DNA of 64,000 nt from a virus (IMGVR_UViG_3300025087_000051); one strand, 5' to 3'. Counted from the stretch's first letter, positions 117 through 64,000 are shown. Notes: generated from the sequence alone by a model not told the origin. Translations and numbers: made by a program.

Positions 117-353
117 TTGGACGGTGTTGATGCTTGTACAAACTGTTCAAACGTTGGTGATTGCAGCGATGTTGGCAGGTGTTTGGGTTATTCCGATGAT
201 GAAATTGGTGAGATAGGCGATTATGACGATGTTGATGGCTTGGAAGATTATGATGACGTTGACGGAATAGGTGACGATGATAATGATGAGGTTGGTGCTT
301 ACGCTTCATATGATTATGACAGTCGTGGCGAAGAAGAAGGAGATGATGATTAA
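117..353 (+). CDS. acidic Asp/Glu-rich repeat protein (may be 3' part of a gene starting upstream of window)
   Basis: ORF; tandem DYDDVDG(L/I) repeats encoded by a ~30-nt DNA tandem repeat; N-terminus of next ORF is similarly acidic. Confidence 0.3.
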   Translation: MDGVDACTNCSNVGDCSDVGRCLGYSDDEIGEIGDYDDVDGLEDYDDVDGIGDDDNDEVGAYASYDYDSRGEEEGDDD

Positions 354-552
354 GTAAAAATTGTAAAAAAATAATTCGTCTCCGATCTGATCAATCGGAG
401 ATTCGGTATGTCAGATGTCCGATGCGCACAAACTCTGATATTGGTTTTCGGTAATCCAATTGTAATAAACCGATGGTTGTCCAGAGCCGATACGATCTGG
501 TTGGTTACGAAAGTTATCCATTAAAACTTTTTACAGAATAGGAGAAAATTGA

Positions 553-1467
553 ATGTTAGATGATTATGAAGAAATCAGTGATGATATGGAAGATTATGAT
601 GATTTGCTCGGTGATTTGAGCGATGATGAAGCAGAAGATGTCGGGGCGTTTATGGTGATGGACGGGTACGAACTTGATGGAATTATTGGCGATATTGGAG
701 CTTCCCCTCGTAAGAAGAAGCTTGCCAGAGCAGCTAAGAGAATCAAGGTCAAGGCGAAGAGAAGGGGTGTACCTTCCAAAAAATTGTATCGAAAAGCGAA
801 GCAAAGGAAAAGGGCTAAAAAGGCTGGGAAAAAGATGAAGTCGTTTGGTGGAAAGAGTATGGTTTGTGGTGTTCAAGCTCCTTGCGCCGGACTGTTGCCG
901 AAGAACGAGCCTGTCTATGATACGGAAAGACTGAGTGCGACACAGGCCGCTGGCGACGTAACGTTCTTTGCAATACCGGAAGGACAGAGTTCGAGCGTAT
1001 CCGGTTCAGCCATAACCAAATCGAAATATCATACCAACATGACTGCGGTCAAGATGTTGCCTGTGCCGCAAAGATTCGATGTGTTTGGTCTTTCTTGGTG
1101 TATGGATAGCGCTACCGTTGCAGCCGTAAATGACATAAGAAATAAGTGTGCTGTTCAATTTTATATCGGCAATACTCCTTATGCAACATTAAGACTTTCG
1201 TTGATACCGTTTTATAGTTCTGTTAATGCCGCTTTTGACGGTACTAATGGTGCAGTTCCTAACGTTGCTTGGTGTACAGGCCCCAAAGAGATGTATGATC
1301 TGAGGACTTTCGATCTTGACAGTGGTGTTTTGATTCCGCAAAGAATTGCATTGCAGGAAAATTTCAGCGTTATTCTGAAGATTGACTCTGCGCTTAATAT
1401 GAGTGCGGCTAAAGATGTTTGTTTCACGTTGCATGGTATTAAGTGGACAGAGATTCGTCAGGGTTAA
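553..1467 (+). CDS. hypothetical protein: acidic N-terminus, Lys/Arg-rich linker, C-terminal globular domain (possible virion/DNA-associated protein)
   Basis: 304-aa ORF, strong composition domains, followed by hairpin+T-run. Confidence 0.55.
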   Translation: MLDDYEEISDDMEDYDDLLGDLSDDEAEDVGAFMVMDGYELDGIIGDIGASPRKKKLARAAKRIKVKAKRRGVPSKKLYRKAKQRKRAKKAGKKMKSFGGKSMVCGVQAPCAGLLPKNEPVYDTERLSATQAAGDVTFFAIPEGQSSSVSGSAITKSKYHTNMTAVKMLPVPQRFDVFGLSWCMDSATVAAVNDIRNKCAVQFYIGNTPYATLRLSLIPFYSSVNAAFDGTNGAVPNVAWCTGPKEMYDLRTFDLDSGVLIPQRIALQENFSVILKIDSALNMSAAKDVCFTLHGIKWTEIRQG

Positions 1468-1518
1468 TCGTTGTAATTGTTGAGTTGTATCGTTCTTTTT
1501 ATGTTTATTGTTATTAAT

Positions 1519-1568
1519 AGGTGTGGGGTTAAGCAAAAAATCTCACACCTATTTTTTTAGAAATTTTC
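1519..1568 (+). terminator. putative intrinsic terminator
   Basis: AGGTGTG...CACACCT stem followed by T7 run directly after CDS 553-1467 (loop is long, so moderate). Confidence 0.4.
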
Positions 1569-1589
1569 TCAAAAAGGTGGATAAAACCT

Positions 1590-2375
1590 ATGATGACAAG
1601 AGATAAAGTAAAGGAATATTTGTACAAAATCGGTGCAAATAGAAGCTGGAGCGTACTTCCGCATTCATCTATTTCGACCGTTGCCAACGGTGCTGGTTCA
1701 GTCGTTATTGTTACTCCGTCACGTTATGATTTTCTAGTAAAAGCCATATCGGGCAGAAGTACAGGATCATACCTGTTAAACTTTCTGGGCAGTGGGAAAT
1801 CTGAACTACTCAGTAATAAACCACTTCACAATTCTACCGTTATCGGCACTGGCAATCTTCCCTATCCGTTACCTTTTCCTATTATACTAAGAAGGAGCGG
1901 TAGCTTTGTAGTAGACGTTTCCGATCTTTCCGGTGCTGCTAATACTATTGAGATTCAGCTTCACGGAATAGCTCTTTATCAAGAAAAAGATACGGAATCG
2001 CTCATACAAAAATATTTAGGAATGATTCCTTATTTTTATACTACGGATTCTACCTTTGCGCTTACCACTGCCGATGCTACTAAAAATATTTCGCTTGTTA
2101 ATAGTCATGATTTTTTATGGACTCAGTGGACATATACAGATACAAACGCAACCACAACTATTGATATTAAATTACAAGCTACGGACGGAAGGACGTTGCA
2201 TCCACCAGACTTGTATATAGATTTACAAGCAGTTACAGGTGGCGCACAATATCCGAAGAAGTTGGAGCATCCAACACCACTATACGGAGGTAATACCTTT
2301 AGCGTTACGGCGAGAGATACGGCTGGTGCAAATACGCTATATCTTACTTTTGGTGGAATAGCATTGTATAAATAG
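1590..2375 (+). CDS. hypothetical protein
   Basis: 261-aa ORF in co-directional array, RBS-like AAAGGTGG upstream. Confidence 0.5.
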   Translation: MMTRDKVKEYLYKIGANRSWSVLPHSSISTVANGAGSVVIVTPSRYDFLVKAISGRSTGSYLLNFLGSGKSELLSNKPLHNSTVIGTGNLPYPLPFPIILRRSGSFVVDVSDLSGAANTIEIQLHGIALYQEKDTESLIQKYLGMIPYFYTTDSTFALTTADATKNISLVNSHDFLWTQWTYTDTNATTTIDIKLQATDGRTLHPPDLYIDLQAVTGGAQYPKKLEHPTPLYGGNTFSVTARDTAGANTLYLTFGGIALYK

Positions 2376-2495
2376 TATGGATAAAAATCTTCTTAAAAAA
2401 TCAGGCACAGTAGCGGTAATAATTATTTTCTGTCTAGTCGTTGGATGGTTCGGTATCGAACTTTCAGAAATATTGTATTGGAGGGTAGATTGATC

Positions 2496-3077
2496 ATGAA
2501 TAAATGTTTAAAACTTAAAAGCACACGGCATGATTTTTTTAATTTACCGGAAAACAAAATTCCGATAAATGAGTATGAAAAAGAAGTAGCTCTATCTAAA
2601 ACTGAATTGTATAAAGTTTTCGACATGGTGTTGAGAAAGAATGCGAAAACATTCACATCAAGAGAAAGCATATTTCTGGCGAATCAGCGTACATTTATTC
2701 AAACATCTGGCAAAATAACCGTTCCTATAGCTGTTGGCAGTGTTTATGGAACAGCAACAGTAATAGATTATACTTTGCCATTGAGGAGTGAAGGGTTTGT
2801 ACATGAGTTCGGTATTGGATATGTGACTCCGAACGGACAAGAAAAAATATTACTAAATTTCCTAGTCAATGATAAGATTGAACCAGGACTGTCCCAGCAA
2901 AGGTTTACTGAGTCTTTTGATACGCCACGACCTATAAAAATTCCACTGCCATCGAATAGTACCAATCTTAAAGTTATTGCATATAATATTGATGATGTAG
3001 CGCCATACGAAATCAAGGTTACAATGGTTGGATACTGGCAATATTTAGAATCTGATAAAGACCAACTAATCAAATAA
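2496..3077 (+). CDS. hypothetical protein
   Basis: ORF 2445-3077; GGAGGG RBS precedes internal ATG at 2496. Confidence 0.45.
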   Translation: MNKCLKLKSTRHDFFNLPENKIPINEYEKEVALSKTELYKVFDMVLRKNAKTFTSRESIFLANQRTFIQTSGKITVPIAVGSVYGTATVIDYTLPLRSEGFVHEFGIGYVTPNGQEKILLNFLVNDKIEPGLSQQRFTESFDTPRPIKIPLPSNSTNLKVIAYNIDDVAPYEIKVTMVGYWQYLESDKDQLIK

Positions 3078-3078
3078 C

Positions 3079-3804
3079 ATGAAAAAATATAAATTCTTAT
3101 CATATTTTTTTTTGTTTGTATCGTTCTTTGGGTTAATTCATGGTGTAAATGCTGAAATTGCTAAAACATTACTAGGCACAACCACGACCAATCCGACCGG
3201 AACATATACGTCCGCGCCAAAACCAACGACCGGTTATACCTGGTTTCGCGGACATATCATAACGGATGGTAGTAATGGGGCAGAAAATCAACCTACTGGA
3301 TATATTGAACAATCGCTCAATCCATCAGCGCCATTGAGTTATCACGGTACGAACACGATTACTTTTTCGAGGTCGGGACAGCTTTGGACAGGTTCGATAA
3401 ATTCTGCAATTATTGGACAATATGCAAGGCTGGTAATTGGTAATTTTGGCGATGCCTCGTTATTGGCTATTAACTGGTTCGTAACACCAGAAACGTCTGT
3501 CAGCACTACGTTAAATCTTACTACGACCCCAATTGCTTCGGGTACAGTGAAAACGGTAGGAATGTCAAGCATAACATTGATAGAAGCTAATACGAGTCGA
3601 AAGTATATACTAATAATTAATACGGGTAATCAAGATTTGTACGTAGACCCTGATAGTCCTGCTGATTCTAATACTGCACGCATATTCATTTCTGGTGGTA
3701 ATGGTTCGTATGAAAAAGAAAGCATGGCATCTATTTATACCGGTGCATTTTATTGCATAACGGCTACGGGAACAACAGAAGTGAGGGTATTTGAAAATAA
3801 TTAA
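3079..3804 (+). CDS. secreted protein with N-terminal signal peptide; paralog of 5231-6094 (tail-fibre/adhesin-like?)
   Basis: signal peptide MKKYKFLSYFFLFVSFFGLIHGVNA; shared motifs NPTGTYTS...YARLVIGNF with 5231-6094. Confidence 0.55.
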   Translation: MKKYKFLSYFFLFVSFFGLIHGVNAEIAKTLLGTTTTNPTGTYTSAPKPTTGYTWFRGHIITDGSNGAENQPTGYIEQSLNPSAPLSYHGTNTITFSRSGQLWTGSINSAIIGQYARLVIGNFGDASLLAINWFVTPETSVSTTLNLTTTPIASGTVKTVGMSSITLIEANTSRKYILIINTGNQDLYVDPDSPADSNTARIFISGGNGSYEKESMASIYTGAFYCITATGTTEVRVFENN

Positions 3805-35045: not shown

Positions 35046-35171
35046 ATGAAACGTATCAATTGCCATTTAACAAATCTTCAAATCAAACAATTAAAAAAAC
35101 TATCAAAAGAAGTTGGGCTGTCGGTTGCTGAAATTATTCGCCGAGCAATAGATGAATATATAACAAAATGA
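35046..35171 (+). CDS. ribbon-helix-helix micro-protein translationally coupled to tnpB
   Basis: 41-aa MKRINCHLTNLQIKQLKKLSKEVGLSVAEIIRRAIDEYITK; stop TGA overlaps tnpB ATG (ATGA). Confidence 0.45.
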   Translation: MKRINCHLTNLQIKQLKKLSKEVGLSVAEIIRRAIDEYITK

Positions 35172-36292
35172 AAAAGACATTTCTTTATCGTGCGAAAATA
35201 AACAGACAGACAGAATCTAATTGCTGTCGATGGATTGAAATTTGTCGTGATGTTTATAACTCCGCATTAGGGCAAAGAATTAATACGTACAAGGAAGCCG
35301 GAAAATCTATAACCAAAAACAATCAAGTAACACAATTACCTTTAATTAAAAAAGATTTTCCAAGTATTAAGATAGTTAGCTCTCAAACACTTCAAGATGT
35401 GATTGAACGTCTCGATAAAGCCTATAAAGCATTTTTTCGTAGAGTAAAGTTTGGAGAAAAAGCCGGATTTCCCCGTTTTAAGAATCGAAACAGCTATAAT
35501 TCCTTCACCCTTAAACAGCATGGATATAAACTTGATGGTAGGTATTTATATATTAAAAACATTGGCAGGTTCAAACTCTTTCTTTCCAGACCGATTGAAG
35601 GAAACGTCAAAACCGTTACCATCAGAAAGATGCCTACAGGTAAATGGTATGTATCTTTTTCTTGTGATGATGTTTCTGCCAAGCAAGTCTCAATAACCGA
35701 TAAAATCATAGGAATAGACGTAGGAATTAAAAATTTCTGTGTTGACAGCGAAGGAACATGCGTTAAAAACCCTAAATTTTTATTTGATTCTGAAAAAGAA
35801 CTTAGACGTAAACAGAGAAAACTTTCCAGAAGAAAAAAGTGTTCTAGCCACTGGAACAAAGCAAAAATATTAGTTGCTAAAGTGCATGAAAAAATAACAA
35901 ATCAAAGAAAAGACTTTTTACATAAGATTACCAATAAATATATTAATAATTTTCAAACTATTTATATTGAAGATTTAAAGATTAAAAATATGGTTAAAAA
36001 TAGATATTTGAGCAAATCTATTTCAGACAGTAGTTGGGGTACTTTCTTTCGGTTTCTTTCTTATAAAGCTGAAAATGCTGGTAGGAAAGTAATTAAGGTG
36101 AACCCTGCCAATACTTCACAAAAATGTTCTACTTGCGGAGAAAAAGTCCAAAAATCTTTATCTGTTCGTATACATTCGTGTTCTTTTTGTGGCTTGAAAA
36201 TAGATAGAGATTTGAATGCTGCAATAAATATAAGTCAGGATGGGCAGTCCTGTCAGGCATTAACTAATGATATGTTAGAATTGGTAGCCTGA
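35168..36292 (+). CDS. tnpB: TnpB (second, divergent copy; ~40% identity to 9510-10670)
   Basis: IGIDVGI, YIEDLKIKNM, CSTCG...CSFCG, RDLNAAINI. Confidence 0.9.
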   Translation: MKKTFLYRAKINRQTESNCCRWIEICRDVYNSALGQRINTYKEAGKSITKNNQVTQLPLIKKDFPSIKIVSSQTLQDVIERLDKAYKAFFRRVKFGEKAGFPRFKNRNSYNSFTLKQHGYKLDGRYLYIKNIGRFKLFLSRPIEGNVKTVTIRKMPTGKWYVSFSCDDVSAKQVSITDKIIGIDVGIKNFCVDSEGTCVKNPKFLFDSEKELRRKQRKLSRRKKCSSHWNKAKILVAKVHEKITNQRKDFLHKITNKYINNFQTIYIEDLKIKNMVKNRYLSKSISDSSWGTFFRFLSYKAENAGRKVIKVNPANTSQKCSTCGEKVQKSLSVRIHSCSFCGLKIDRDLNAAINISQDGQSCQALTNDMLELVA

Positions 36293-47082: not shown

Positions 47083-47289
47083 ATGACAACAGACAATATA
47101 AATCATCCGCCACATTACAAATCAAACGGTATGGAAGCTATTGACGTGATAGAGGCGTTTGGTCTTGGATTTCATCTTGGTAATGCCATGAAATACATTC
47201 TTAGAGCTGGCAGAAAAACAGAAGACGATACGGAAGATACAAAAAAGGCTATTTGGTATTTAAATCGTTATTTAGGAGAAAAACAGTGA
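47083..47289 (+). CDS. DUF3310-like phage protein
   Basis: NHPPHYKSNGMEAIDVIEA pattern recalled from phage DUF3310 family (from memory). Confidence 0.45.
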   Translation: MTTDNINHPPHYKSNGMEAIDVIEAFGLGFHLGNAMKYILRAGRKTEDDTEDTKKAIWYLNRYLGEKQ

Positions 47290-48824
47290 AAATAATTAAA
47301 CCGTCAATTGAAATTTTAGACGTATTAGACCAAACCACTATTTTGAAAAGATTGGAATTAGTTGGAAGGACTTGCTATAAATCAGAAGATAAAATAACCG
47401 ATAATTCTTGTGTTGAGTTTATCAGAAAGATTATTAAGTCTGGACACCATTCCATAATTGAACATTACGATATTTCGGTTAGAGTAATATGTGATAGGGG
47501 CGTTACCCACGAAATAGTTAGACATAGAATAGCCAGCTATGCTCAGGAATCTACACGATATTGTATATCGGGAGACATGGGTTTATCTTTTAAAAATCCT
47601 CATCAAAAATTTACTGTGAGCCAACTTTATAACAATCGAATTAACTCAAAAAATAATTCGTGGAAAAGAATGTTTATTAAACAACTTAACGAAGACACCG
47701 GATATATCACTTTTGACAAAATAAAAAATATTGTTTATACAGGATTTAAAGAGGTAGTAAAAATTACTACTTCTCTTGGGTATTCTCTTATTGTTACGCC
47801 AGATCATAGAATAAAAACCAGTTATGGATATGCAAGGGCAGACAGTTTAGCGGGAAGGGAGATAGCTGTAAATGGAATTGGAATTTGTACAACAAAACAT
47901 GCCTACCAAGATAAAGATTGGCTTAAATATCACTATATTGTGTTAAACAAAACAGCAGTACAAATTGCCAATGATTTAAAAGCTAGTACCTCTGCCGTTA
48001 AGAAATGGATAAGATTGCATGGCTTTGCGAATACTAAACCAAAAAGCTATTGGAATAAGGGAAGAAAACCCTGGAATAAAGGACTTACCGAAAGCAATGA
48101 TATAAGAATCAAAAAACAAGGAGATGCCCTACGAAAATTCGGATATAGAAAAGGAGAAAAAAAAAGACAGAAAACAATATCTATAAGAACTTATCATAAA
48201 ACCGTAAAAGATAAATGTGTTTTGTGTGGAGGTTGTTTATCCCTTCATGTTCACCACAAAAACAGCAACAGGATGGATAATTGTACTGACAATTTGATAA
48301 CCTTATGCCCCTCTTGTCATGGGGGTGTCCATAATAAAAATCTATCATTTGTATATTTTGATAAAGTAGTATCCATAGAAAAATTGCCTAATACTATTCC
48401 TGTTTATGATATTGAGATGGGAGGGCAATATCATAATTTTGTAGCAAACGGTGTGGTTGTGCATAACTGTAATTATGCAAGCGGTAAATTTGGAAATGAA
48501 ATCACTGTTATTGAACCTTGTTTTTGGAATATAGATAACGATGAAAAGATGTTAGTATGGGAATTAGTCATAAAAGCCTCAGAAGCCGCATATCTCAAAC
48601 TTATAGAACTTGGAGCAACTCCACAAGAAGCGAGGAGTGTGCTTCCAAATTCTTTGAAAACAGAAATAATTGTTAAATTCAATCTTCGAGAATGGAGACA
48701 TTTCTTAACTTTGAGAACTTCTAGGGCTGCTCATCCACAAATGAGAGAAGTGACAAACATGATACTAACAGAGTTTAAATCAAAATTACCAATTATTTTT
48801 GAGGATATATCCAATGAAAATTAA
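47253..48824 (+). CDS. thyX: flavin-dependent thymidylate synthase ThyX interrupted by an HNH intein
   Basis: N-extein IVRHRIASYAQESTRY (RHRx7S...SxRY ThyX motif); C-extein ARSVLPNS...NLREWRHFLTLRTS; exteins total ~221 aa. Confidence 0.8.
   Translation: MVFKSLFRRKTVKIIKPSIEILDVLDQTTILKRLELVGRTCYKSEDKITDNSCVEFIRKIIKSGHHSIIEHYDISVRVICDRGVTHEIVRHRIASYAQESTRYCISGDMGLSFKNPHQKFTVSQLYNNRINSKNNSWKRMFIKQLNEDTGYITFDKIKNIVYTGFKEVVKITTSLGYSLIVTPDHRIKTSYGYARADSLAGREIAVNGIGICTTKHAYQDKDWLKYHYIVLNKTAVQIANDLKASTSAVKKWIRLHGFANTKPKSYWNKGRKPWNKGLTESNDIRIKKQGDALRKFGYRKGEKKRQKTISIRTYHKTVKDKCVLCGGCLSLHVHHKNSNRMDNCTDNLITLCPSCHGGVHNKNLSFVYFDKVVSIEKLPNTIPVYDIEMGGQYHNFVANGVVVHNCNYASGKFGNEITVIEPCFWNIDNDEKMLVWELVIKASEAAYLKLIELGATPQEARSVLPNSLKTEIIVKFNLREWRHFLTLRTSRAAHPQMREVTNMILTEFKSKLPIIFEDISNEN
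47562..48467 (+). other. intein (302 aa) with HNH homing-endonuclease domain inside thyX
   Basis: starts CISGDMG (block A), HVHHKNSNRMDNCTDNLITLCPSCHGGVHN HNH, ends VYDIEMGGQYHNFVANGVVVHN followed by +1 Cys. Confidence 0.8.
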
Positions 48825-55604: not shown

Positions 55605-56159
55605 ATGGAAAACAAAATAATTATGTTCGATTCTGGTGAGGCAGCACAGACAAAAACTATAACGGGATGGGTTTCTGGTAATGGCTTTTTTTACGGTAAC
55701 GATGAACAATCTGCAAGGTATATGGGATGCACTCATCAACGTTGCGAATGTGGAATGATTATGAAAAAAGGCTATACTATCTGTGAGTCGTGCCGACACA
55801 AAAAAGCATTGGAAAGATACAGAAATATGCCGTTTAAGGAATGGAACGGTGCTGATTTTTTATATTCAGAAGTAGCGGATAAATATTTTTACGATAGCGA
55901 AGAAATCTTTGATTATTGTGAAGACGAAGGTATCCTTGTAGAGTCTTTACGATTTATAATTTGCGAACCTGTATATCCAAAAGAAATCAATTTATCTGAG
56001 ATTTATTCGGATTTATTACCGGAATATTCTGGTGGCGAATTGCCACAATATTTAATAGACGCTGAAAATGAATTAAACCAAATAATCAGAGAAGAAAAAG
56101 AACTACTGTCTTGGATACCTGGAAAATATCGGACAGAAGTCGAGGGGAGGAAAGAATGA
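55605..56159 (+). CDS. zinc-binding hypothetical protein
   Basis: CTHQRCECG ... CESC. Confidence 0.45.
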   Translation: MENKIIMFDSGEAAQTKTITGWVSGNGFFYGNDEQSARYMGCTHQRCECGMIMKKGYTICESCRHKKALERYRNMPFKEWNGADFLYSEVADKYFYDSEEIFDYCEDEGILVESLRFIICEPVYPKEINLSEIYSDLLPEYSGGELPQYLIDAENELNQIIREEKELLSWIPGKYRTEVEGRKE

Positions 56160-56578
56160 TATTGAAAAAACTAAAAGGAAAAATAATAAAATTGGTGTTG
56201 GTTAGCTTTGTGTGTTTGAATACTTATTCCTCATTTGCTCTTAATGAAATTACAGAAAAAAAATATAAAACATTCGATGGAAAAATATTTAATAAGAAGG
56301 AAGACGCCCTGCTCCATGAAAAAATCCAGAAAAATGTCAACCTGCTTATGGAAATATTCAAAGAGGATACAGAAGCCGCTCTACAGCAAAAAGAACACGA
56401 TATGGATCACGACTTGAGATTGTATCTCTGGGGACACCGTCCTTATCGCTTAGACGAATACGAAGAAGAATATAGAAGTCATTTCTATAAATATTTTAAA
56501 ATATTAGAAGAAAAAGGAATCGAAATAGAAATCACACTTAAAAAAGATTATGGAACTTTTACAGTAAATAAAAAATAA
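56156..56578 (+). CDS. secreted hypothetical protein
   Basis: Met at 56156 followed by signal-like LVLVSFVCLNTYSSFA. Confidence 0.4.
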   Translation: MILKKLKGKIIKLVLVSFVCLNTYSSFALNEITEKKYKTFDGKIFNKKEDALLHEKIQKNVNLLMEIFKEDTEAALQQKEHDMDHDLRLYLWGHRPYRLDEYEEEYRSHFYKYFKILEEKGIEIEITLKKDYGTFTVNKK

Positions 56579-56601
56579 AACAAGAAATAGGAGAAAATAA
56601 T

Positions 56602-56823
56602 ATGATATTAAACGAATCGAGTATGTTAAAAAACTTTAAAGGCAAAACGAGAAATATGAAAAATATATTGGATTGTCTTTATGTTGATATATGTACTGCA
56701 ACACCGTCACCGAATGATATTCACGATCTAGACAAAGAAAAGAAAGAACTGTTAAGACGTATCAAAAAATTAGAAAAAGAAATTTTATCTTTAAAAAATA
56801 AAAAAATCAAACGAAACATCTAG
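56602..56823 (+). CDS. coiled-coil small protein
   Basis: AGGAGAA RBS; followed by CGCAG-GTTTT-CTGCG hairpin. Confidence 0.35.
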   Translation: MILNESSMLKNFKGKTRNMKNILDCLYVDICTATPSPNDIHDLDKEKKELLRRIKKLEKEILSLKNKKIKRNI

Positions 56824-56930
56824 TCTAAGTGTTTCGTTATCGATCCGCAGCGTTTTTCCCGTATCGCAGGTTTTCTGCGGGTCGAAACTTTAGAAATTTA
56901 ATCTAAAAAAATTCACTACATCAATATATT

Positions 56931-58868
56931 ATGAATTACGATAATTTTCTTACTCATAAAAAACAGCAAGGATCTAATCATGGATTTGATCCTACATTTG
57001 TTCCAGATTATTTGTTTGATTTTCAAAAAAGTTTGGTTGAATGGGCTGTAAATAAGGGTCGTAGTGCTATATTTTCTGATTGCGGCACAGGAAAAACTAT
57101 TATGGAGCTTGTGTGGGCATACAACATAGTAAGAAAAACAAACAAAAATGTATTGATATTATCACCGCTGGCCGTCTCTTGGCAAACCGCAAAAGAAGCG
57201 GAAAAATTTGGAATTGAATGTAAGGTATCAAGGGATGGTAAAATTAACAGCAAAATAACAATTACCAATTATGAACAATTACATAAGTTTGAACCGTCTG
57301 ATTTTGTCGGTATTGTATGTGATGAGAGTGGAATATTAAAATCGTTTAAAGGTGCATTAAGAAAAGAAATAACAATATTCATGCGTAAAATTGAATATAG
57401 ATTATTAGCTACGGCAACGCCAGCTCCGAACGATTATATTGAATTGGGAACTTCGTCTGAAGCCTTGGGATATCTAGGTGCAATGGATATGTTAAATAAA
57501 TTTTTCAAAAACGATCAACACAATAGCAAAGTGGGAAGATATAGAGGACAAGAAGTTAAATGGAGATTGAAAGGTCATGCAGAATTACCTTTTTGGAGAT
57601 GGATATGTTCTTGGGCTAAAGCAATGAGAAAACCATCTGATTTAGGTTTTGACGATAATGGATTTATATTGCCAGAATTAATAATTAATCAAACCGTTGT
57701 AAAATCTAATAGTCTTCCTAAGGGTAAATTATTTTCTATGCCAGCGATAACACTACAAGAACAAAGAGAAGAAAGAAGAAGAACTATAATGGAAAGATGT
57801 GAGATGGTCGCCAGCAAGGTCAATACTGGTAAACAAGCATTGGTTTGGTGTCATTTAAACGACGAAGGAGACTTGTTAGAAGCACTTATTCCTAATTCAA
57901 TACAAGTAAAAGGGTCTGATTCTGTTGAATGGAAAGAAGCAGCGGCTGAATGGTTCGTTGGAAATAAATGTATTTGCAATGATAATATGTTTCGTGCTAA
58001 ACTTTTAGCATGGAAAAGAGAAAAACAAATCTTGAATACCATCGCCGATACTATCAAGAACATCGAGAGGAACGATTGCGTCAATCCATCGAATACCAGC
58101 GAGCACATAAAGTTGAACGAAAATCTTATCTATCAGAATATTACAAACACAACAGGGGGAAATGGGTGCGGACACAAAAACAAAAGGATGAAAGAAATAG
58201 AAGACGACGAGAGCGATATGCAAATGACGAAAAATTTCGTCTCGCTAAAATTGAAGAATCAAAAGAAACAAGAAGAAAAAACCCAGACACTCGGCTCAAA
58301 TATTGTCTTAAAAAATATGGTGTGTCCATCGAAGAATATCGAAAACTTGAATCAAAAGGATGCGCAATCTGCGGAAGAAAAGAAAACGGAGATATTCGAG
58401 GACACCGATTCCACATCGATCACTCCCACGATACTGGAAAATTCAGAGGGGTACTGTGTACAGGATGCAATCAAGGACTCGGAAAGTTTGGTGACGACCC
58501 TAAACGGCTCGAAAATGCCGCCATGTATCTGCGGGCATAAGACAGGACGTCGCATCCTCATAAGCAAGCCTGTCATGTTTGGGTATGGCTTAAATTTCCA
58601 ATGCTGTAATTATATGGTTTTATTCCCTTCCCATAGTTACGAACAATATTATCAAGTAATCCGCCGGTGTTGGCGTTTCGGACAAAAAAATCCAGTAACA
58701 GTAGATATTATAACAACGGAAGGGGAGTCAAGAATTATAAACAATTTACAAAGAAAATCTAAACAAGCTGATGAAATGTTTGAAAGATTAATTAGCGAAA
58801 TGAATCATGTGTTAAATATAAATCGAATGGAAGAATATTCACAAAAAATAATACTTCCTAATTTCTAA
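56931..58868 (+). CDS. SNF2-family helicase carrying an in-frame 555-nt insertion that encodes an HNH endonuclease in another frame
   Basis: motif I SDCGTGKT, II CDESG, III LLATATPAPND, V RILISKPVMFGYGLNF, VI QVIRRCWRFGQ; middle 185 codons low-complexity. Confidence 0.7.
   Translation: MNYDNFLTHKKQQGSNHGFDPTFVPDYLFDFQKSLVEWAVNKGRSAIFSDCGTGKTIMELVWAYNIVRKTNKNVLILSPLAVSWQTAKEAEKFGIECKVSRDGKINSKITITNYEQLHKFEPSDFVGIVCDESGILKSFKGALRKEITIFMRKIEYRLLATATPAPNDYIELGTSSEALGYLGAMDMLNKFFKNDQHNSKVGRYRGQEVKWRLKGHAELPFWRWICSWAKAMRKPSDLGFDDNGFILPELIINQTVVKSNSLPKGKLFSMPAITLQEQREERRRTIMERCEMVASKVNTGKQALVWCHLNDEGDLLEALIPNSIQVKGSDSVEWKEAAAEWFVGNKCICNDNMFRAKLLAWKREKQILNTIADTIKNIERNDCVNPSNTSEHIKLNENLIYQNITNTTGGNGCGHKNKRMKEIEDDESDMQMTKNFVSLKLKNQKKQEEKTQTLGSNIVLKNMVCPSKNIENLNQKDAQSAEEKKTEIFEDTDSTSITPTILENSEGYCVQDAIKDSESLVTTLNGSKMPPCICGHKTGRRILISKPVMFGYGLNFQCCNYMVLFPSHSYEQYYQVIRRCWRFGQKNPVTVDIITTEGESRIINNLQRKSKQADEMFERLISEMNHVLNINRMEEYSQKIILPNF
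57978..58532 (+). mobile_element. inserted segment carrying HNH gene, bounded by 9-bp direct repeat TGTATTTGC / TGTATCTGC
   Basis: 555 nt (3 x 185) purine-rich, GC-richer than flanks; removal restores ...GNKCIC-GHKTGRRILIS... SNF2 motif IV-V spacing. Confidence 0.6.
58010..58540 (+). CDS. HNH homing-type endonuclease
   Basis: CAICGRKENGDIRGHRFHIDHSHDTGKFRGVLCTGCNQGLGKF. Confidence 0.75.
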   Translation: MEKRKTNLEYHRRYYQEHREERLRQSIEYQRAHKVERKSYLSEYYKHNRGKWVRTQKQKDERNRRRRERYANDEKFRLAKIEESKETRRKNPDTRLKYCLKKYGVSIEEYRKLESKGCAICGRKENGDIRGHRFHIDHSHDTGKFRGVLCTGCNQGLGKFGDDPKRLENAAMYLRA

Positions 58869-58889
58869 ACAATAGAGGAGGTCAGGATC

Positions 58890-59903
58890 GTGACAGTTAA
58901 AGATCAGGTAATAACAAGTAATTATGCAATATACAATGGAGATGCTGTAGAAGTATTAAAAACACTACAAAGCAATTCTATTCACTTCTCTGTATACTCT
59001 CCTCCGTTTGCTACTGGCGGTGGCGGGCTTTATACTTATTCAAGCCACGAAAGAGACCTTTCTAATTGCGATAGTTACGAACAATTTTTTGAACATTACG
59101 CTTTTGTCGTAGAAGAAATAGCAAGATTAACATTACCTGGAAGATGTTCTGTCGTGCATTGTATGGATGTGCCGAAAAGTAATTCCGGTAATGATCTATT
59201 GAGGGATTTTCCAGGAGATATAATCAGATTACACGAAAAATATGGATTTGGATATGCGGCAAGACACTGTATTTGGAAAGAACCATTAGGGGTAAGATTG
59301 AGAACTATGCAAAAAAATTTAGCGCACAAAACATTAGTAGAAGATTCTATTGCATGTGGAGTGGCATCTGCTGACTACTTGTTAGTTTTTACGAAAAAAG
59401 GCAAGAATCAAATACCCATATCTCACCCAACCGGATTAAGTAATTATGCTGGAGAAAAGCCAATACCTTCCAACATATTACAATACAAGGGATATACTGG
59501 TAAACAGACAGAAAATTCATACTCGCATTGGATGTGGCGACAATACGCTTCTTCTATGTGGGACGATATAAGACTTGAAAGAACATTGCCATATAAAGAA
59601 GCAAGAGACAGCGAAGACGAAAAACACGTACATCCATTACAATTAGATGTTATTGAAAGATGCGTTGTTTTAAGGTCTAATATAGACGAAGTCGTGTTGA
59701 CACCATTTATGGGAGTTGGAAGCGAATGTTATGGTGCTATTATTAATGGCAGAAAAGCCATAGGAATCGAATTGAAACCATCTTATTACAGACAAGCCGT
59801 TAAAAATATGGAATTAGCTAAAAACGAAAAAACATTACAGAAAAAACTATTCAACGAAAACAATACCTTACTATCATTGATGAGTGAGGAAAAATCGGAA
59901 TAA
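58890..59903 (+). CDS. beta-class N6-adenine/N4-cytosine DNA methyltransferase
   Basis: motif IV SPPF (FSVYSPPFATGG) N-terminal, motif I FMGVGSE C-terminal; GAGGAGG RBS. Confidence 0.8.
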   Translation: MTVKDQVITSNYAIYNGDAVEVLKTLQSNSIHFSVYSPPFATGGGGLYTYSSHERDLSNCDSYEQFFEHYAFVVEEIARLTLPGRCSVVHCMDVPKSNSGNDLLRDFPGDIIRLHEKYGFGYAARHCIWKEPLGVRLRTMQKNLAHKTLVEDSIACGVASADYLLVFTKKGKNQIPISHPTGLSNYAGEKPIPSNILQYKGYTGKQTENSYSHWMWRQYASSMWDDIRLERTLPYKEARDSEDEKHVHPLQLDVIERCVVLRSNIDEVVLTPFMGVGSECYGAIINGRKAIGIELKPSYYRQAVKNMELAKNEKTLQKKLFNENNTLLSLMSEEKSE

Positions 59904-59905
59904 TA

Positions 59906-62611
59906 ATGGAAATCTCGAACAAAATCCCATTTTCTAATCCTAAATTTAAAAAAGGATTAACACCGCTACAGCACAAAACCGTCACGGACGTGCTATCAAG
60001 CAGAAAAACAATAACGATGATTAATGCTCCCACCGGATTCGGGAAGACTCCGACAGCTATGACCCTTGCCCACCATATAAACTACCCGAACCAATCTCTA
60101 TATCTTTGTAGTTCTAAAATTTTACAAGATCAATTGGCTGGGGATTTTACAGAAGCGTATCAATTAAAAGGGCGGGGAAATTATCCGTGCACACTTCTAC
60201 CCACCTATAATGCAGACCGATGCTTCCAACAATGCGATGAATATAAGTGCGGTGAAATTTCATGCGCTTATGAAGATGCGAAAAAAGAAGCCTTATCATC
60301 AACTTTTACCATTCTCAACATGCACTATTACGAGACCGAAACGAATTTTGTCGGTAGATTTTCAAAGCGTAAAACCGTAATAATTGACGAGGCAGATGTA
60401 TTAGAAGATATTTTGATAGATTTTATCGCACTAGACGTCCATCCGAAAACATTGGAAAAATTCAAGCTGGATCAGCCCAAATATGTGACTAAGTTAGATT
60501 CATGGAAGGAATGGGCGGATAAAACATTAAAAATATTAGAAGAAAAAGTTAAAAAGCTAAGAGCCGCCGAAGACCACTTGGATAGAGAATCAAAATTAGA
60601 ACTAAGTAAATTGTTGAGAATGTGTCTGAAATTAAATATGCTAAAAAACGATATAACGGAAGAGTGGATATTCGACCATGCCGAAAAATTTCGCTTTCAA
60701 CCTCTCTGGCTAGACACAAAACTTACCCAACAATATTTACTCAAACATGCGGAAAGATTCGTTATGATGTCTGCGACCATGCTCCCGAAAGTTATAGCGT
60801 GTAAATTATTGGGATTAGATATTAACGATGTGGATTATCACGAGATAGATTCACCTATACCCGTAGCGAATCGTCCCATTGTTTATAAGCCAATTAAAAA
60901 GCTAAAATACGGTGAATCAGAAGAAGATGTTTATAATGAAATTAAAAGATTGATAGAAGGGTACAAAGGAATTAAAGGGATTATTCATGCTGTGAGCTAT
61001 ACCCGTGCAAAGGCAATAGCAGGACTGGACAAGCGTTGCATCACTCATAATACCTACGATAAAAACGAAAAAATAAAACAATTCATAGACTCAAAAGATG
61101 GGATATTGGTAAGCCCATCGTGTGATCGTGGACTTGACCTGCACGGCGATCTAGCAAGATTCTGTATAATTCCAAAAGTTCCGTTCCCGAACACAACGGA
61201 CAAGGTGGTCTCCAAGCGTTTGTACAGCTCTCCCTTTGGTAGGGTATGGTACAGGGCTGTAACGGCGCAAACCATTGTTCAGATGGCGGGGCGTACTACT
61301 CGATGTTTTAGCACAGACACAGAAATCTTAACGATACATGGATGGAAAAAATACAACGAAGTAAATATGCACGATAAAACTTATTGTATTGATCAGAAAT
61401 CTTTTAACAATAAAACTAAACGTCCAGTTATGGAGGGTTCTTCGATATTAGTAGAAGGAGAAATAGAGGATGTCTATACATCAGATAAAGAAGAAAAAGT
61501 TATTAATATTAAAAATCAAAACATTGATGCTTTAGTTACTCAAGACCACGACATGATTGTTCAAATGAGAAAACAGAAAACTTATAGGGGGAAGTATAAA
61601 AAACCTTATGGAGTTTATGATTGGAAATACTGTCATCGTACAAATAGTCATGGATTAGAAAAAATAAAAGCATCTAAATTACCAGACAGATTTAAAATAC
61701 CACTAGCAGGAAAAATTATACGCAAAAACAAATCTCGTGCTAAAAAAGAATGGTTCTGGCTGATAGGTTTCATAATAGGGGATGGACATATTCATAAAAA
61801 CAAAAACGTCGTAACAATACATCAATCGGAAACCAACATAGACTTAATAGAAAAAATCAGAAAAGTTCTTGGTATACTTAAAATAGAATATTCAGAATAC
61901 AGACGACAAGTAAAAGGAACAAAAATAAATTTAAACGATAAGGAGTATTCAAGAAAAGAAGATATGATAAATTTTCAAATAACGGGTAAGTCTTCTTCGA
62001 TGATTAGGGATATGTTTAATAATGGCAAAAGAAGAAGGTATTCAAAAACAGTAACATACGTACAAAGAACTCACTTTTCTTTTAGTAAAAAAATAGGGGG
62101 AAAGCATAAAATAGATGGGTGGAAAGAAGTGGAAAAAATCATACCAAGATGGTGTCTGGAGAAGGGGTCGAAATCCCAACTTATTAAATTAATTCATGGT
62201 TTGGTTGACAGCGACGGAAGCTGGAAAAAAACTAATGGTAAATATAATAAAAACGTTGGAGGTTTTTACAACAAAAATAAAATCATAATAGATGCTTTTC
62301 AGGAGTTGTGCGTATTGACAGGATATAGAAGTTTGATTCGTAACAGAAGGAATCAATACGAAGTTTCCTTTTGTTGTCCCTCCATGATTGACTGTACGAA
62401 AAATAATGATGTAAAAGACGGAGGGATGTCTAAGGTGTGGTGTGTTAAAACAAATCATGGAAATGTTATAATGAGGAGAAATGGTAAACCTTTTTTGTGT
62501 GGAAACAGTGCCAGCGACTTTTCCACTGTTCATATACTGGACGCTGCTTTTGATTCGGTCGTAGAATTTGTCCCGAAATGGTTTCGAGATGCAATCAAGG
62601 TTGAATTTTAG
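59906..62611 (+). CDS. DinG/Rad3(XPD)-family FeS helicase interrupted by a LAGLIDADG intein in motif VI
   Basis: motif I NAPTGFGKT, four-Cys FeS cluster, DEAD box, motif VI QMAGRTTR | intein | SASDFSTVHILDAAF. Confidence 0.8.
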   Translation: MEISNKIPFSNPKFKKGLTPLQHKTVTDVLSSRKTITMINAPTGFGKTPTAMTLAHHINYPNQSLYLCSSKILQDQLAGDFTEAYQLKGRGNYPCTLLPTYNADRCFQQCDEYKCGEISCAYEDAKKEALSSTFTILNMHYYETETNFVGRFSKRKTVIIDEADVLEDILIDFIALDVHPKTLEKFKLDQPKYVTKLDSWKEWADKTLKILEEKVKKLRAAEDHLDRESKLELSKLLRMCLKLNMLKNDITEEWIFDHAEKFRFQPLWLDTKLTQQYLLKHAERFVMMSATMLPKVIACKLLGLDINDVDYHEIDSPIPVANRPIVYKPIKKLKYGESEEDVYNEIKRLIEGYKGIKGIIHAVSYTRAKAIAGLDKRCITHNTYDKNEKIKQFIDSKDGILVSPSCDRGLDLHGDLARFCIIPKVPFPNTTDKVVSKRLYSSPFGRVWYRAVTAQTIVQMAGRTTRCFSTDTEILTIHGWKKYNEVNMHDKTYCIDQKSFNNKTKRPVMEGSSILVEGEIEDVYTSDKEEKVINIKNQNIDALVTQDHDMIVQMRKQKTYRGKYKKPYGVYDWKYCHRTNSHGLEKIKASKLPDRFKIPLAGKIIRKNKSRAKKEWFWLIGFIIGDGHIHKNKNVVTIHQSETNIDLIEKIRKVLGILKIEYSEYRRQVKGTKINLNDKEYSRKEDMINFQITGKSSSMIRDMFNNGKRRRYSKTVTYVQRTHFSFSKKIGGKHKIDGWKEVEKIIPRWCLEKGSKSQLIKLIHGLVDSDGSWKKTNGKYNKNVGGFYNKNKIIIDAFQELCVLTGYRSLIRNRRNQYEVSFCCPSMIDCTKNNDVKDGGMSKVWCVKTNHGNVIMRRNGKPFLCGNSASDFSTVHILDAAFDSVVEFVPKWFRDAIKVEF
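61304..62506 (+). other. intein (401 aa) with LAGLIDADG homing endonuclease
   Basis: begins CFSTDTEILT; LIGFIIGDGHI and LVDSDGSW motifs; ends NGKPFLCGN then +1 Ser. Confidence 0.75.
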
Positions 62612-62628
62612 AAAAAAAGGATAAGGAT

Positions 62629-62820
62629 ATGTGCAATAACAAATGTCCAAATTGTGGAAGCAATATGATAGAAAAACCACCAGTAATGATTTATTCAGCC
62701 AATCCACAACAATACGATTCTGTAATGTGGTGTGGTTGTGGCTATTCTGAAAATCGAGGCAGGGTTTTTAGCAAGGCAGAAGATGAACAATTATATGATT
62801 TGTGGAAAAAAGCAAATTAA
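62629..62820 (+). CDS. zinc-ribbon protein
   Basis: CNNKCPNCG ... CGCG. Confidence 0.35.
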   Translation: MCNNKCPNCGSNMIEKPPVMIYSANPQQYDSVMWCGCGYSENRGRVFSKAEDEQLYDLWKKAN

Positions 62821-63056
62821 CAAAAAACATGGATAGCCTTGAGATAAAAAGAGGGGAGTGGTTGTTTCTTGATGCTGTTTATAACATAAATTCTCATTAT
62901 ATCGAGGGCGGCTGGGACAAAATTATGGAGAAATTTCCAGAAGAAATCAAATGCTTGGATGAAAGATTAAATCAGTATTGGAATCAGAAAGTTATTACAG
63001 AATGGAAGAATGGAATTAAAGAATATTTGATCGAAGTTAATTACTGGAAGGAGTAG
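62802..63056 (+). CDS. hypothetical protein
   Basis: 84-aa ORF. Confidence 0.35.
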   Translation: MEKSKLTKNMDSLEIKRGEWLFLDAVYNINSHYIEGGWDKIMEKFPEEIKCLDERLNQYWNQKVITEWKNGIKEYLIEVNYWKE

Positions 63057-63063
63057 TCTGGAA

Positions 63064-63933
63064 ATGGGATATTTACATATAGAAAATTTATATAAAAACA
63101 AAGATATATTACTTTTTAAAGAATGTTATGCTTTGGAAAAAATACATGGATGTTCCGCCCATATTCAATGGAAAGATAAATTAATTACTTATTTTCCTGG
63201 CGGTATCAAACTGGAATCTTTTGTCAAAATTTTTAATAATGATTTTTTAAAAAGTAAATTTTCAGAATTAGCTATTAACGATATAATCATTTACGGAGAA
63301 GTTTATGGTGGTGCTTGCCAAAAAATGAGCGATGTTTATGGTAAAAATTTAAAATTTATAGCTTTTGATGTAAAAATAGAAGATGTTTGGCTGTGTGTTC
63401 CCGATGCTTTCGATATTTGTTCTCAATTTAATATAGAATTTGTTCATTACGAAAAAGTTAAAACTGAAATTGAAATATTAGATAAATTGGCAAATGATTA
63501 TTCCATACAATCTATTCGTAACGGCATAAAAGAACCGAAAAAAAGAGAAGGTATTGTGCTGAGACCTCTTGTTGAACTTATCAAAAACAACGGAAGCCGT
63601 ATAATTTCAAAACACAAAAATGATACATTTAAAGAAAGAGAACATTTACCGAAAATTAGTGAAGAATCTCTTAAAATTTACGAAGAAGCGCAATCCGCCG
63701 TTAATGAATTTGTTACAGAGATGAGACTTTCTCATATTTTGGGGAAATTAACTGAATGTAATATCGAAGATGCGGGAATGATAATAAAATTTATGATCGA
63801 AGATGTTTTCAGAGAAGCAAAGGGAGAAATTATAGAAAATACTGAAATTAAAAAATTAATAGGCAAAAAAACTGCAATAATGTTTAAGCAAAGAATAGTT
63901 GATAAGTTAAAAACAGGATCAAAGAATATTTAG
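63064..63933 (+). CDS. Rnl2-like ATP-dependent RNA/DNA ligase (nucleotidyltransferase)
   Basis: motif I EKIHGCSA (KxHG as in T4 Rnl2 KIHGTN); GEVYGG; EGIVLRP. Confidence 0.55.
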   Translation: MGYLHIENLYKNKDILLFKECYALEKIHGCSAHIQWKDKLITYFPGGIKLESFVKIFNNDFLKSKFSELAINDIIIYGEVYGGACQKMSDVYGKNLKFIAFDVKIEDVWLCVPDAFDICSQFNIEFVHYEKVKTEIEILDKLANDYSIQSIRNGIKEPKKREGIVLRPLVELIKNNGSRIISKHKNDTFKEREHLPKISEESLKIYEEAQSAVNEFVTEMRLSHILGKLTECNIEDAGMIIKFMIEDVFREAKGEIIENTEIKKLIGKKTAIMFKQRIVDKLKTGSKNI

Positions 63934-64000
63934 TAGAAGTTGATTATTGGAGGGAATGAATAATGGGCATTGAAATTTTATCAATTATATTTTTGACTTG

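Follow-up and report, generated by a model that had tools for sequence, protein, structure and literature searches.

A LAGLIDADG intein directly after motif VI of a DinG/XPD-like phage helicase: a typical member of a large intein family, apparently at a new site

In this article, I describe an intein that interrupts a helicase gene in a 64,000-nucleotide (nt) stretch of viral DNA (IMGVR_UViG_3300025087_000051), the whole of which will be referred to as the window. The gene encodes one continuous chain of 901 amino acids (aa), in which the sequence of a helicase related to DinG and XPD runs as far as the arginines of motif VI and is then separated from the strand that should follow them by a segment of 401 residues. 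The positions of the gene, of the segment with its catalytic blocks and of the other elements discussed below are collected in Table 1. A preliminary description of this locus, drawn up from the DNA alone, had already pointed to an intein here, and all of the strings that it quoted for the open reading frame (ORF), together with their coordinates, were found as stated, to the residue.

Table 1. Positions of the features discussed, counted from the first nucleotide of the window unless another locus is named; a slash marks a splice junction.
Feature	Position	Strand	Basis or remark
Precursor gene, intein-interrupted DinG/XPD-like helicase	59906..62611	+	Single ORF, ATG to TAG, 901 aa plus stop
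N-extein, aa 1-466, helicase domain 1 and most of domain 2	59906..61303	+	Gapless against the 500-aa orthologs P0001-P0003; Pfam DEAD, ResIII, Helicase_C_2
Walker A (motif I), APTGFGKT	60026..60049	+	Other alleles carry a different intein at this motif
Cys-rich segment, C95, C106, C110, C115, C120	60188..60265	+	Presumed four-Cys metal-cluster (iron-sulfur, FeS) domain, from Cys conservation
Walker B (motif II), IIDEAD	60380..60397	+	D161 and E162 invariant
Helicase motif VI, QMAGRTTR, aa 459-466, end of the N-extein	61280..61303	+	Q459, R463 and R466 invariant in 54 homologs
Intein, 401 aa, Cys467 to Asn867, HINT domain with nested LAGLIDADG endonuclease domain	61304..62506	+	Exact gap against orthologs; structure prediction and Foldseek; base composition
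Block A, CFSTDTEILTIHGW, opening CFSTDTEILT	61304..61345	+	Cys1 nucleophile; C1, T6, E7, L9, T10, G13 and W14 invariant in family alignment A2
Block B, NIDALVTQDHDMIV	61520..61561	+	Thr79 and His82 (TxxH); position B:12 is Met, not Trp
LAGLIDADG motif 1, LIGFIIGDGHI, aa 619-629	61760..61792	+	Acidic residue is Asp of GDG; LAGLIDADG_3; model helix 148-160
LAGLIDADG motif 2, LIHGLVDSDGSW, aa 762-773 (contains LVDSDGSW, from aa 766)	62189..62224	+	Acidic residue is Asp of SDG; D304 and G305 invariant; model helix 290-304
Block F, KVWCVKTNHGNVIM (VWCVKT)	62432..62473	+	Cys380 where most inteins have Asp; family has Trp/Tyr-Cys in 116, Trp/Tyr-Asp in 9
Block G, RRNGKPFLCGN, with Ser868 (+1)	62474..62509	+	Gly400 penultimate, Asn401 terminal; R391-K395 and N401 invariant in A2
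Copy-specific intein segments, residues 35-45, 92-121 and 242-272	~61406..61438, 61577..61666, 62027..62119		Basic-rich, absent in other family members
C-extein, 34 aa, SASDFSTVHILDAAF...KVEF	62507..62608	+	Aligns with the C-termini of orthologs
SNF2/ResIII-like helicase, 645 aa	56931..58868	+	Two genes upstream of the precursor; helicase frame open throughout
Nested Endonuclease VII-type HNH ORF, 176 aa, other frame	58010..58540	+	PF02945, E 3e-19
N6/N4 DNA methylase, 337 aa	58890..59903	+	Adjoins the SNF2-like helicase with nested HNH ORF
ThyX gene with canonical 302-aa intein	ORF 47253..48824; intein 47562..48467	+	STRY/CISGD...VVVHN/CNYASG
TnpB/IS605 OrfB-type gene	35168..36292	+	OrfB_IS605 E 4e-28; Cas12f1-like TNB domain E 5e-25
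Locus L012, long SNF2-like homolog / nested HNH ORF	1444..3483 / 2622..3170		Helicase frame open
Locus L013, long SNF2-like homolog / nested HNH ORF	213..2243 / 1337..1894		Helicase frame open
N6/N4 methylase genes of L012 and L013	477..1508; 2183..3133		Adjoin the SNF2-like helicase, on either side

The host protein was proposed to be an FeS helicase of the DinG/Rad3 family, and its family membership is well supported: it carries the superfamily 2 (SF2) motifs I, II and VI, its spliced form scores 49.7 bits with Pfam Helicase_C_2 (cutoff 25.3), and the AlphaFold (AF2) model of the spliced 500-aa protein (predicted local distance difference test, pLDDT, 91.7; predicted template-modelling score, pTM, 0.89) finds almost exclusively DinG, XPD, CasDinG or Rad3 chains among its top 40 Foldseek matches, with Escherichia coli DinG (6fwr) at an expectation value (E) of 1.2e-23 and a template-modelling (TM) score of 0.75, and XPD at E 1e-21 to 1e-19. 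A 26-residue stretch with five Cys is located between motif Ia and Walker B; three of these Cys (C95, C106 and C120) are conserved in 91-100% of the homologs, and since at least four Cys occur in this stretch in 116 of 117 homologs, the four-Cys cluster is a trait of the helicase family as a whole. Sequence reveals neither the metal nor the type of cluster; taking it for FeS is my inference from the Cys pattern and the fold, with XPD and DinG as models. The equivalog cutoffs of NCBIfam are far from reached (62 bits against 680 for YoaA, 16 bits against 598 for DinG), identity to its relatives in cultured phages, which are annotated as 'DNA helicase', does not exceed 30%, and the host protein is a family-level relative of DinG and YoaA, not an ortholog.

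That the 401 residues are an insertion into this protein can be seen by taking them out. The spliced 500-aa sequence was searched against 5.8 billion proteins, and of the 120 homologs listed, the 117 with a locatable motif VI form the basis of all counts of inserts. Five orthologs (P0001-P0005) share 84-86% identity with the exteins at lengths of 500-505 aa, three of them having exactly 500 aa, and in their alignment the 401 residues form one clean gap right after ...GRTTR; at the nucleotide level, the window gene minus the segment measures 1503 nt, precisely the size of the ortholog gene at locus L001, with which it aligns gapless at 78% identity. No insert follows motif VI in any of the 117 homologs, and 52 of them have a Ser directly after the motif (R/SxxD), several reading R/SASD exactly as the window does; the DNA of the fused exteins, that is, of the intein-less form, would read ...CGTACTACTCGA/AGTGCCAGCGAC... 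across the junction. Removal of the segment raises the Pfam Helicase_C_2 score from 31.8 bits to the value given above and extends the match from positions 38-139 to positions 38-168 of the 170 in the profile. The segment itself is open throughout its 401 codons, with 39 and 42 stops in the other two forward frames (a chance of about 3e-17 at the local base composition), and its GC content of 31.4%, or 27% at third codon positions (GC3), compares with 39.5% and 38% in the exteins, a difference in keeping with a foreign origin.

The preliminary description had itself named an alternative, namely that the 401 residues are a conserved accessory domain of the helicase family and no mobile element at all. 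I consider this exceedingly improbable and exclude it, because the segment is absent from all 117 intein-free homologs, including orthologs of 84-86% identity and exactly matching length, because its removal restores the host protein, and because its GC content differs; moreover, the relatives of the segment occupy unrelated hosts, its fold is that of intein homing endonucleases, and no point in support of an accessory domain was found.

The exact gap, the intein blocks and the intein fold together bear out the original placement of a 401-aa intein after QMAGRTTR. The segment starts at Cys467 (residue 1 of the intein), reads Thr79-Gln-Asp-His82 in block B and ends with Asn867, and the next residue, Ser868, opens the C-extein. 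All of the columns that are invariant in the family alignment A2 are retained, these being Cys1, Thr6, Glu7, Leu9, Thr10, Gly13, Trp14, the Gly of LAGLIDADG motif 1, the Asp-Gly of motif 2, Trp379, Arg391-Lys395 and Asn401. Pfam LAGLIDADG_3 matches the segment in two stretches (E 2.4e-11), an acidic residue (Asp or Glu) stands in motif 1 of all nine A2 sequences, and the window intein possesses the acidic residue of both motifs. An AF2 model built on A2 (mean pLDDT 78.8, about 90 at both termini; pTM 0.80) matches the inteins TliVMA, PI-SceI and PhoVMA at E 3.6e-13 to 1e-10 (up to 5e-7 when PI-PkoII is included) and the mini-inteins Ssp DnaB and Mtu RecA with a Foldseek probability of 0.97-1.0, and its LAGLIDADG part matches I-Tsp061I, I-SceI, the bI3 maturase and I-WcaI at E 4e-7 to 1e-4. 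A family profile was needed to see such kinship at the level of sequence: phmmer with the intein as a single query against the PDB returned nothing but I-Tsp061I at E 0.12, and the family profile reached PI-PkoII at 2.8e-10 and an NrdHF intein at 1e-8.

Most inteins carry Asp at position 4 of block F (F:4), and in other inteins a His in block F can stand in for the penultimate His. The window intein has Cys380 at the former position and Gly400 as its penultimate residue, and to judge these departures the relatives of the intein have to be considered. They are in-frame insertions in metallophosphoesterases, ThyX, MCM, DNA methyltransferases and a glycosyltransferase (E 1.5e-15), all of which open with C-x-[SD]-x-[DE]-TEILT-x-x-GW and close with RRNGK-x4-x-N, the next residue being Ser, Cys or Thr; a search with the A2 profile returned 30,069 cluster representatives at E<=0.001 and 7,472 at E<=1e-30, many of the proteins bearing several copies, and among phages a tblastn search with the intein gave the ThyX intein of Corynebacterium phage P1201 as its sole match. 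In the best 150 proteins of the profile search, 179 C-terminal signatures were located, and in these the penultimate residue is Gly in 153 and His in 3, the last intein residue is Asn in 156, and the +1 residue is Ser in 109, Thr in 40 and Cys in 18. Trp or Tyr in block F is followed by Cys in 116 cases and by Asp in 9, and it is because the latter cases mark the place where most inteins carry Asp that Cys380 can be assigned to F:4. Among the 87 members whose two ends could be paired, Cys stands at position 1 in 81, and B:12 is Met, Leu, Ile or Val, never Trp; block B reads TxxH or SxxH, with TxxH in 48 of 54 assignable members, and the conserved block F His is absent from the family, as read from A2. 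Because these counts share Cys1, TxxH, the F:4 Cys and the Gly-Asn end with the window copy, its residues mark the window intein as a typical member of a large family with the consensus Cys1, TxxH, F:4 Cys, Gly at position 6 of block G (G:6) and Asn. This clade is very large and almost unstudied, and its catalytic centre departs from the textbook class 1 set at F:4, at the penultimate residue and in the missing block F His, though it keeps Cys1 and TxxH.

One member of the family has, however, been examined at the bench. Relatives recovered with A2 are common in mycobacteriophage genes for phosphoesterases (RDF), methyltransferases and nucleotidyltransferases, and the phosphoesterase intein of phage Bethlehem, which surfaced via one relative (P0121) and the family profile alone, matches that profile at E 1.8e-40 (125 bits). 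It is 317 aa long, has Gly316 as its penultimate residue, reads EVWCLRV in block F and ends HLTGN/S; it is the gp51 of Kelley et al. (2016; PMC5050341) and is annotated as gp52 in AY500153. The Bethlehem RDF intein splices essentially to completion, replacing Gly with His (G316H) leads to the accumulation of precursor, and the intein encodes an endonuclease that is toxic and hence active (PMC5050341); functional inteins that lack a penultimate His are documented in the same work and the papers cited therein. By analogy, the splicing of this relative offers the strongest available argument that the window intein may be active. The penultimate Gly, presented earlier as an oddity of this copy, is instead found in most of the family and in a member that splices; the block pattern as first drawn was correct in noting this departure and had overlooked another, the Cys at F:4 within VWCVKT.

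With these points in hand, I think it highly probable that the 401 residues are a full intein, predicted to restore the helicase by class 1 splicing and, once released, to act as a homing endonuclease. The intein is filed as class 1 because it has Cys1, the class 1 TxxH motif, Met at B:12 and Cys at position 5 of block G (G:5). In the proposed pathway, Cys1 would form a thioester at the Arg466-Cys467 bond, activated by Thr79 and His82 of block B; the N-extein would then move to Ser868 by transesterification; Asn401 would cyclise and release the intein, unaided by a penultimate His, a lack shared by its family; and a final O-to-N shift would yield a 500-aa helicase reading ...GRTTR-SASD.... The freed intein, as a site-specific endonuclease, would cut intein-less alleles of the helicase gene during co-infection, and repair would copy the intein into them.

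Several observations weigh against this proposal and should be set beside it. Three residues that usually assist splicing are missing: Asp and His in block F (the Asp, at F:4 and here Cys380, being usual and not obligatory in class 1 inteins) and His at the penultimate position (here Gly400; common and likewise not obligatory). The intein also scores 15.8 bits with TIGR01445, the model of the intein N-terminal region, against a cutoff of 24.5. The three copy-specific segments listed in Table 1, which bring the intein to 401 aa compared with a family median of 340, are modelled poorly (pLDDT <50). Its closest relatives are only 22-32% identical, so that selection on this copy is not measurable. 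As for homing, the closest intein-free alleles have Gly and not Ser at +1, and over the first 30 nt after the site they are 30-43% identical to the window; among known relatives, such alleles would be no more than possible targets of the endonuclease. A co-conversion tract at the junction, suggested by 53% nt identity in a junction-spanning window of 60 nt, was rejected as unproven, because the intein-free alleles are equally divergent there among themselves (55-62%).

One rival concerns the cysteines, three of which (1, 380 and 399) occupy catalytic positions in the window intein. Class 3 inteins have no nucleophile at position 1, use Trp at B:12, Cys at F:4 and Thr at G:5 and usually have Ser or Thr at +1 (PMC2807308, PMC7664689); their prototype, the mycobacteriophage Bethlehem DnaB intein (PMC2807308), shares with the window intein a Cys at F:4 and, at +1, a residue of the favoured Ser/Thr type, and class 3 inteins are frequent in phage helicases and ATPases, the window intein also sitting in a phage helicase. 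Splicing might proceed by a less plain route, with Cys380 as the nucleophile of a class 3-like branched intermediate or as the partner of Cys1 or Cys399 in a disulfide that gates the reaction by redox state. The F:4 Cys in 116 of about 147 assignable family C-termini, its being typical of class 3 among published inteins (PMC2807308), Ser or Thr at +1 in 149 of 179 C-termini and at G:5 in 86 of 179 would all be in keeping with such a role, as would the disulfide-bonded forms of the precursor seen with a mutant of the related RDF intein (PMC5050341). Yet the window intein differs from class 3 in its Cys1 (kept also in 81 of 87 family members), its TxxH, its Met at B:12 and its Cys at G:5; the Trp that activates the class 3 route never occurs at B:12 in the family; Asp or Ser replaces the F:4 Cys in some members, so the Cys is not obligatory; the RDF relative was assigned to class 1 by its authors (PMC5050341); and a WCT motif grafted onto a class 1 intein gave no class 3 splicing (PMC7664689). 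I therefore regard a departure from the plain route as quite unlikely. The broader thought that a block F Cys is catalytic beside Cys1 throughout, as second nucleophile or redox gate, so that the clade bridges class 1 and class 3, is unlikely as well; if true, it would place the helicase under conditional, redox-sensitive activation.

It is also very unlikely that the intein is a decayed one that no longer splices, leaving a helicase that is inactive or works with the insert in place, in a gene that is kept as dispensable or was recently invaded. One could read decay into the non-canonical residues at F:4 and G:6, into the poorly modelled copy-specific insertions and into the fact that the searches made found no close relative of the intein at the same site. 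The 'non-canonical' residues, however, are the consensus of the family and compatible with efficient splicing in the member that was tested (PMC5050341), every nucleophile and every family-invariant residue is intact, both LAGLIDADG acidic residues are retained, no stop interrupts the 401 codons although the DNA is AT-rich, and the identical precursor recurs in many assemblies of a phage genome of about 78.5 kilobases (kb). From what is known of SF2 helicases, ATPase activity would not be expected to survive an unspliced insert directly behind the arginines of motif VI.

What the alleles of this gene look like in the environment can be learned from metagenomes. Index entries for the identical 901-aa precursor occur in 62 blocks of an assembly collection, and at least 23 contigs carry it, two of them measuring about 78.5 kb; because it is found on so many contigs, the intein-bearing allele can be ascribed to a recurrent phage genome. 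The window represents most of this uncultured genome, whose close relatives come from groundwater metagenomes; these relatives (samples Hain_H41, H51 and H52) carry the intein-free allele. A megablast of positions 56000..64000 against 50,697 phage records gave no match, and a scan of IMG/VR with the precursor returned no relative. A scan of JGI/ENA metagenomes yielded six loci, among them an intein-free one (L009), another that is intein-free to go by match length (L004) and two whose match lengths, and these alone, fit an allele with a mini-intein in the P-loop (L005 and L006). An N6/N4 methylase gene immediately precedes the intein-free ortholog at L001-L003, as it does the precursor gene in the window. 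A further locus, L008 (1210..2412), encodes P0008, a 400-aa 'helicase' whose two halves stand in reverse order, the C-terminal one first; it adjoins an unrelated transposase-like gene on a short JGI contig and was discarded as an apparent assembly chimera or rearranged fragment.

Alleles with an intein in the P-loop occur among the helicase homologs themselves. P0006, a protein of 648 aa whose exteins are 85% identical to those of the window, has a mini-intein in Walker A (APTG/C...HN/SGKS), and P0060, a more distant homolog of 698 aa, has a full LAGLIDADG intein at the same site. The inteins at Walker A and that at motif VI mean at least two independent invasions of a single phage helicase gene family. 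Inteins favour catalytic ATPase motifs, and repeated invasion of a helicase fits that preference. No other insertion at motif VI was encountered among the 117 helicase homologs or the sampled inteins of the family, and searches of the literature for an intein in DinG or XPD, or at helicase motif VI, found nothing relevant; the motif VI site is apparently new to the literature searched and the relatives sampled.

All of the large ORFs of the window are on the forward strand, at about 33% GC. As stated in the preliminary description, the window contains a second intein, that of the ThyX gene, which has an HNH-type endonuclease motif and not LAGLIDADG, and which Pfam Intein_splicing recognizes at E 1e-15; the profile of the helicase-intein family does not match it, and the two inteins belong to different lineages. 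The gene for an SNF2-like helicase encloses, in another frame, an ORF for an HNH protein of the Endonuclease VII type. Homologs of this helicase are mostly about 454 aa long, some 20 of the best 120 having 620-720 aa, and the long forms that were aligned share the same insertion of about 190 aa, lacking in the short ones, between conserved KCICN and CICGH (flanks of the type CxC...CxC). Two distant homologs from other samples (L012 and L013) also contain the nested HNH ORF, and when the same nucleotides are compared between loci, identity amounts to 51-62% in the HNH frame and to 34-39% in the helicase frame. A group I intron in this gene was considered and dropped, there being no Rfam match in 56500..64000 at E<=0.1. 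To all appearances, the nested ORF is a homing-endonuclease gene whose DNA, read in the helicase frame, supplies a linker to the host protein, a dual-coding arrangement for which no known match was found. The N6/N4 methylase genes next to the SNF2-like helicase in the window, L012 and L013 suggest a conserved helicase-methylase module. The SNF2 gene of L001 is not an ortholog of that of the window, and the methylase beside the intein-free DinG-like helicase of L001 has 244 aa compared with 337 aa in the window. Exactly this helicase precursor and this SNF2-like protein recur, in many samples, on numerous contigs that measure about 78.5 kb (L014 and L015). A TnpB/IS605 OrfB-type gene also sits inside this apparent phage genome.

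Taken together, the window intein is real yet fairly ordinary, typical of a large and known kind of intein and apparently at a new site. It provides a residue-exact example of an intein right after the motif VI arginines of a DinG/XPD-type helicase; it cautions that a Gly-Asn end, being the rule in this intein family, is not to be taken as a sign of decay; and it could serve protein engineering as a compact, His-less splicing module that uses Ser at +1.

How do the host and its intein compare with systems already known? With E. coli DinG and the archaeal and eukaryotic XPD proteins, the window helicase has in common Helicase_C_2, the fold, a Cys segment between motifs Ia and II, and a motif VI of the form QxxGRxxR followed by xxxD...LD; it differs from them in being short (500 aa) with a compact Cys segment (26 aa), in its identity of just 12-18% to the solved DinG and XPD structures, and in its membership of a phage clade, the nearest named relatives of which bear no annotation beyond 'DNA helicase'. 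The P-loop inteins of P0006 and P0060 interrupt a catalytic ATPase motif in the same helicase gene family, as the window intein does, but at Walker A, from another lineage and with a canonical His-Asn end, and the mini-intein of P0006, unlike the window intein, has no endonuclease domain. The solved LAGLIDADG inteins, such as TliVMA (7qsu, 7qss), PI-SceI (1vde and others), PhoVMA (7qst), PI-PkoII (2cw7) and PI-PfuI (1dq3), have the same architecture of a HINT domain with a nested double-motif LAGLIDADG domain (probability 1.0), and the window intein shares with them a presumed life cycle of splicing and homing; they are 6-12% identical to it over the structural alignments and reside in archaeal or yeast ATPase and polymerase genes, whereas the window intein resides in a phage helicase. 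In the yeast VMA intein, the last two residues are His-Asn and position 4 of block F is Asp. The Bethlehem RDF intein, like the window intein, is phage-borne and has Cys1, a VWC block F, a Gly-Asn/Ser end and a homing endonuclease, although it lies in another host protein and at another site, reads EDGGK in place of the RRNGK of the window intein and its closer kin, is 317 aa long rather than 401, and in a direct BLASTP comparison gives short local matches of about 23% identity.

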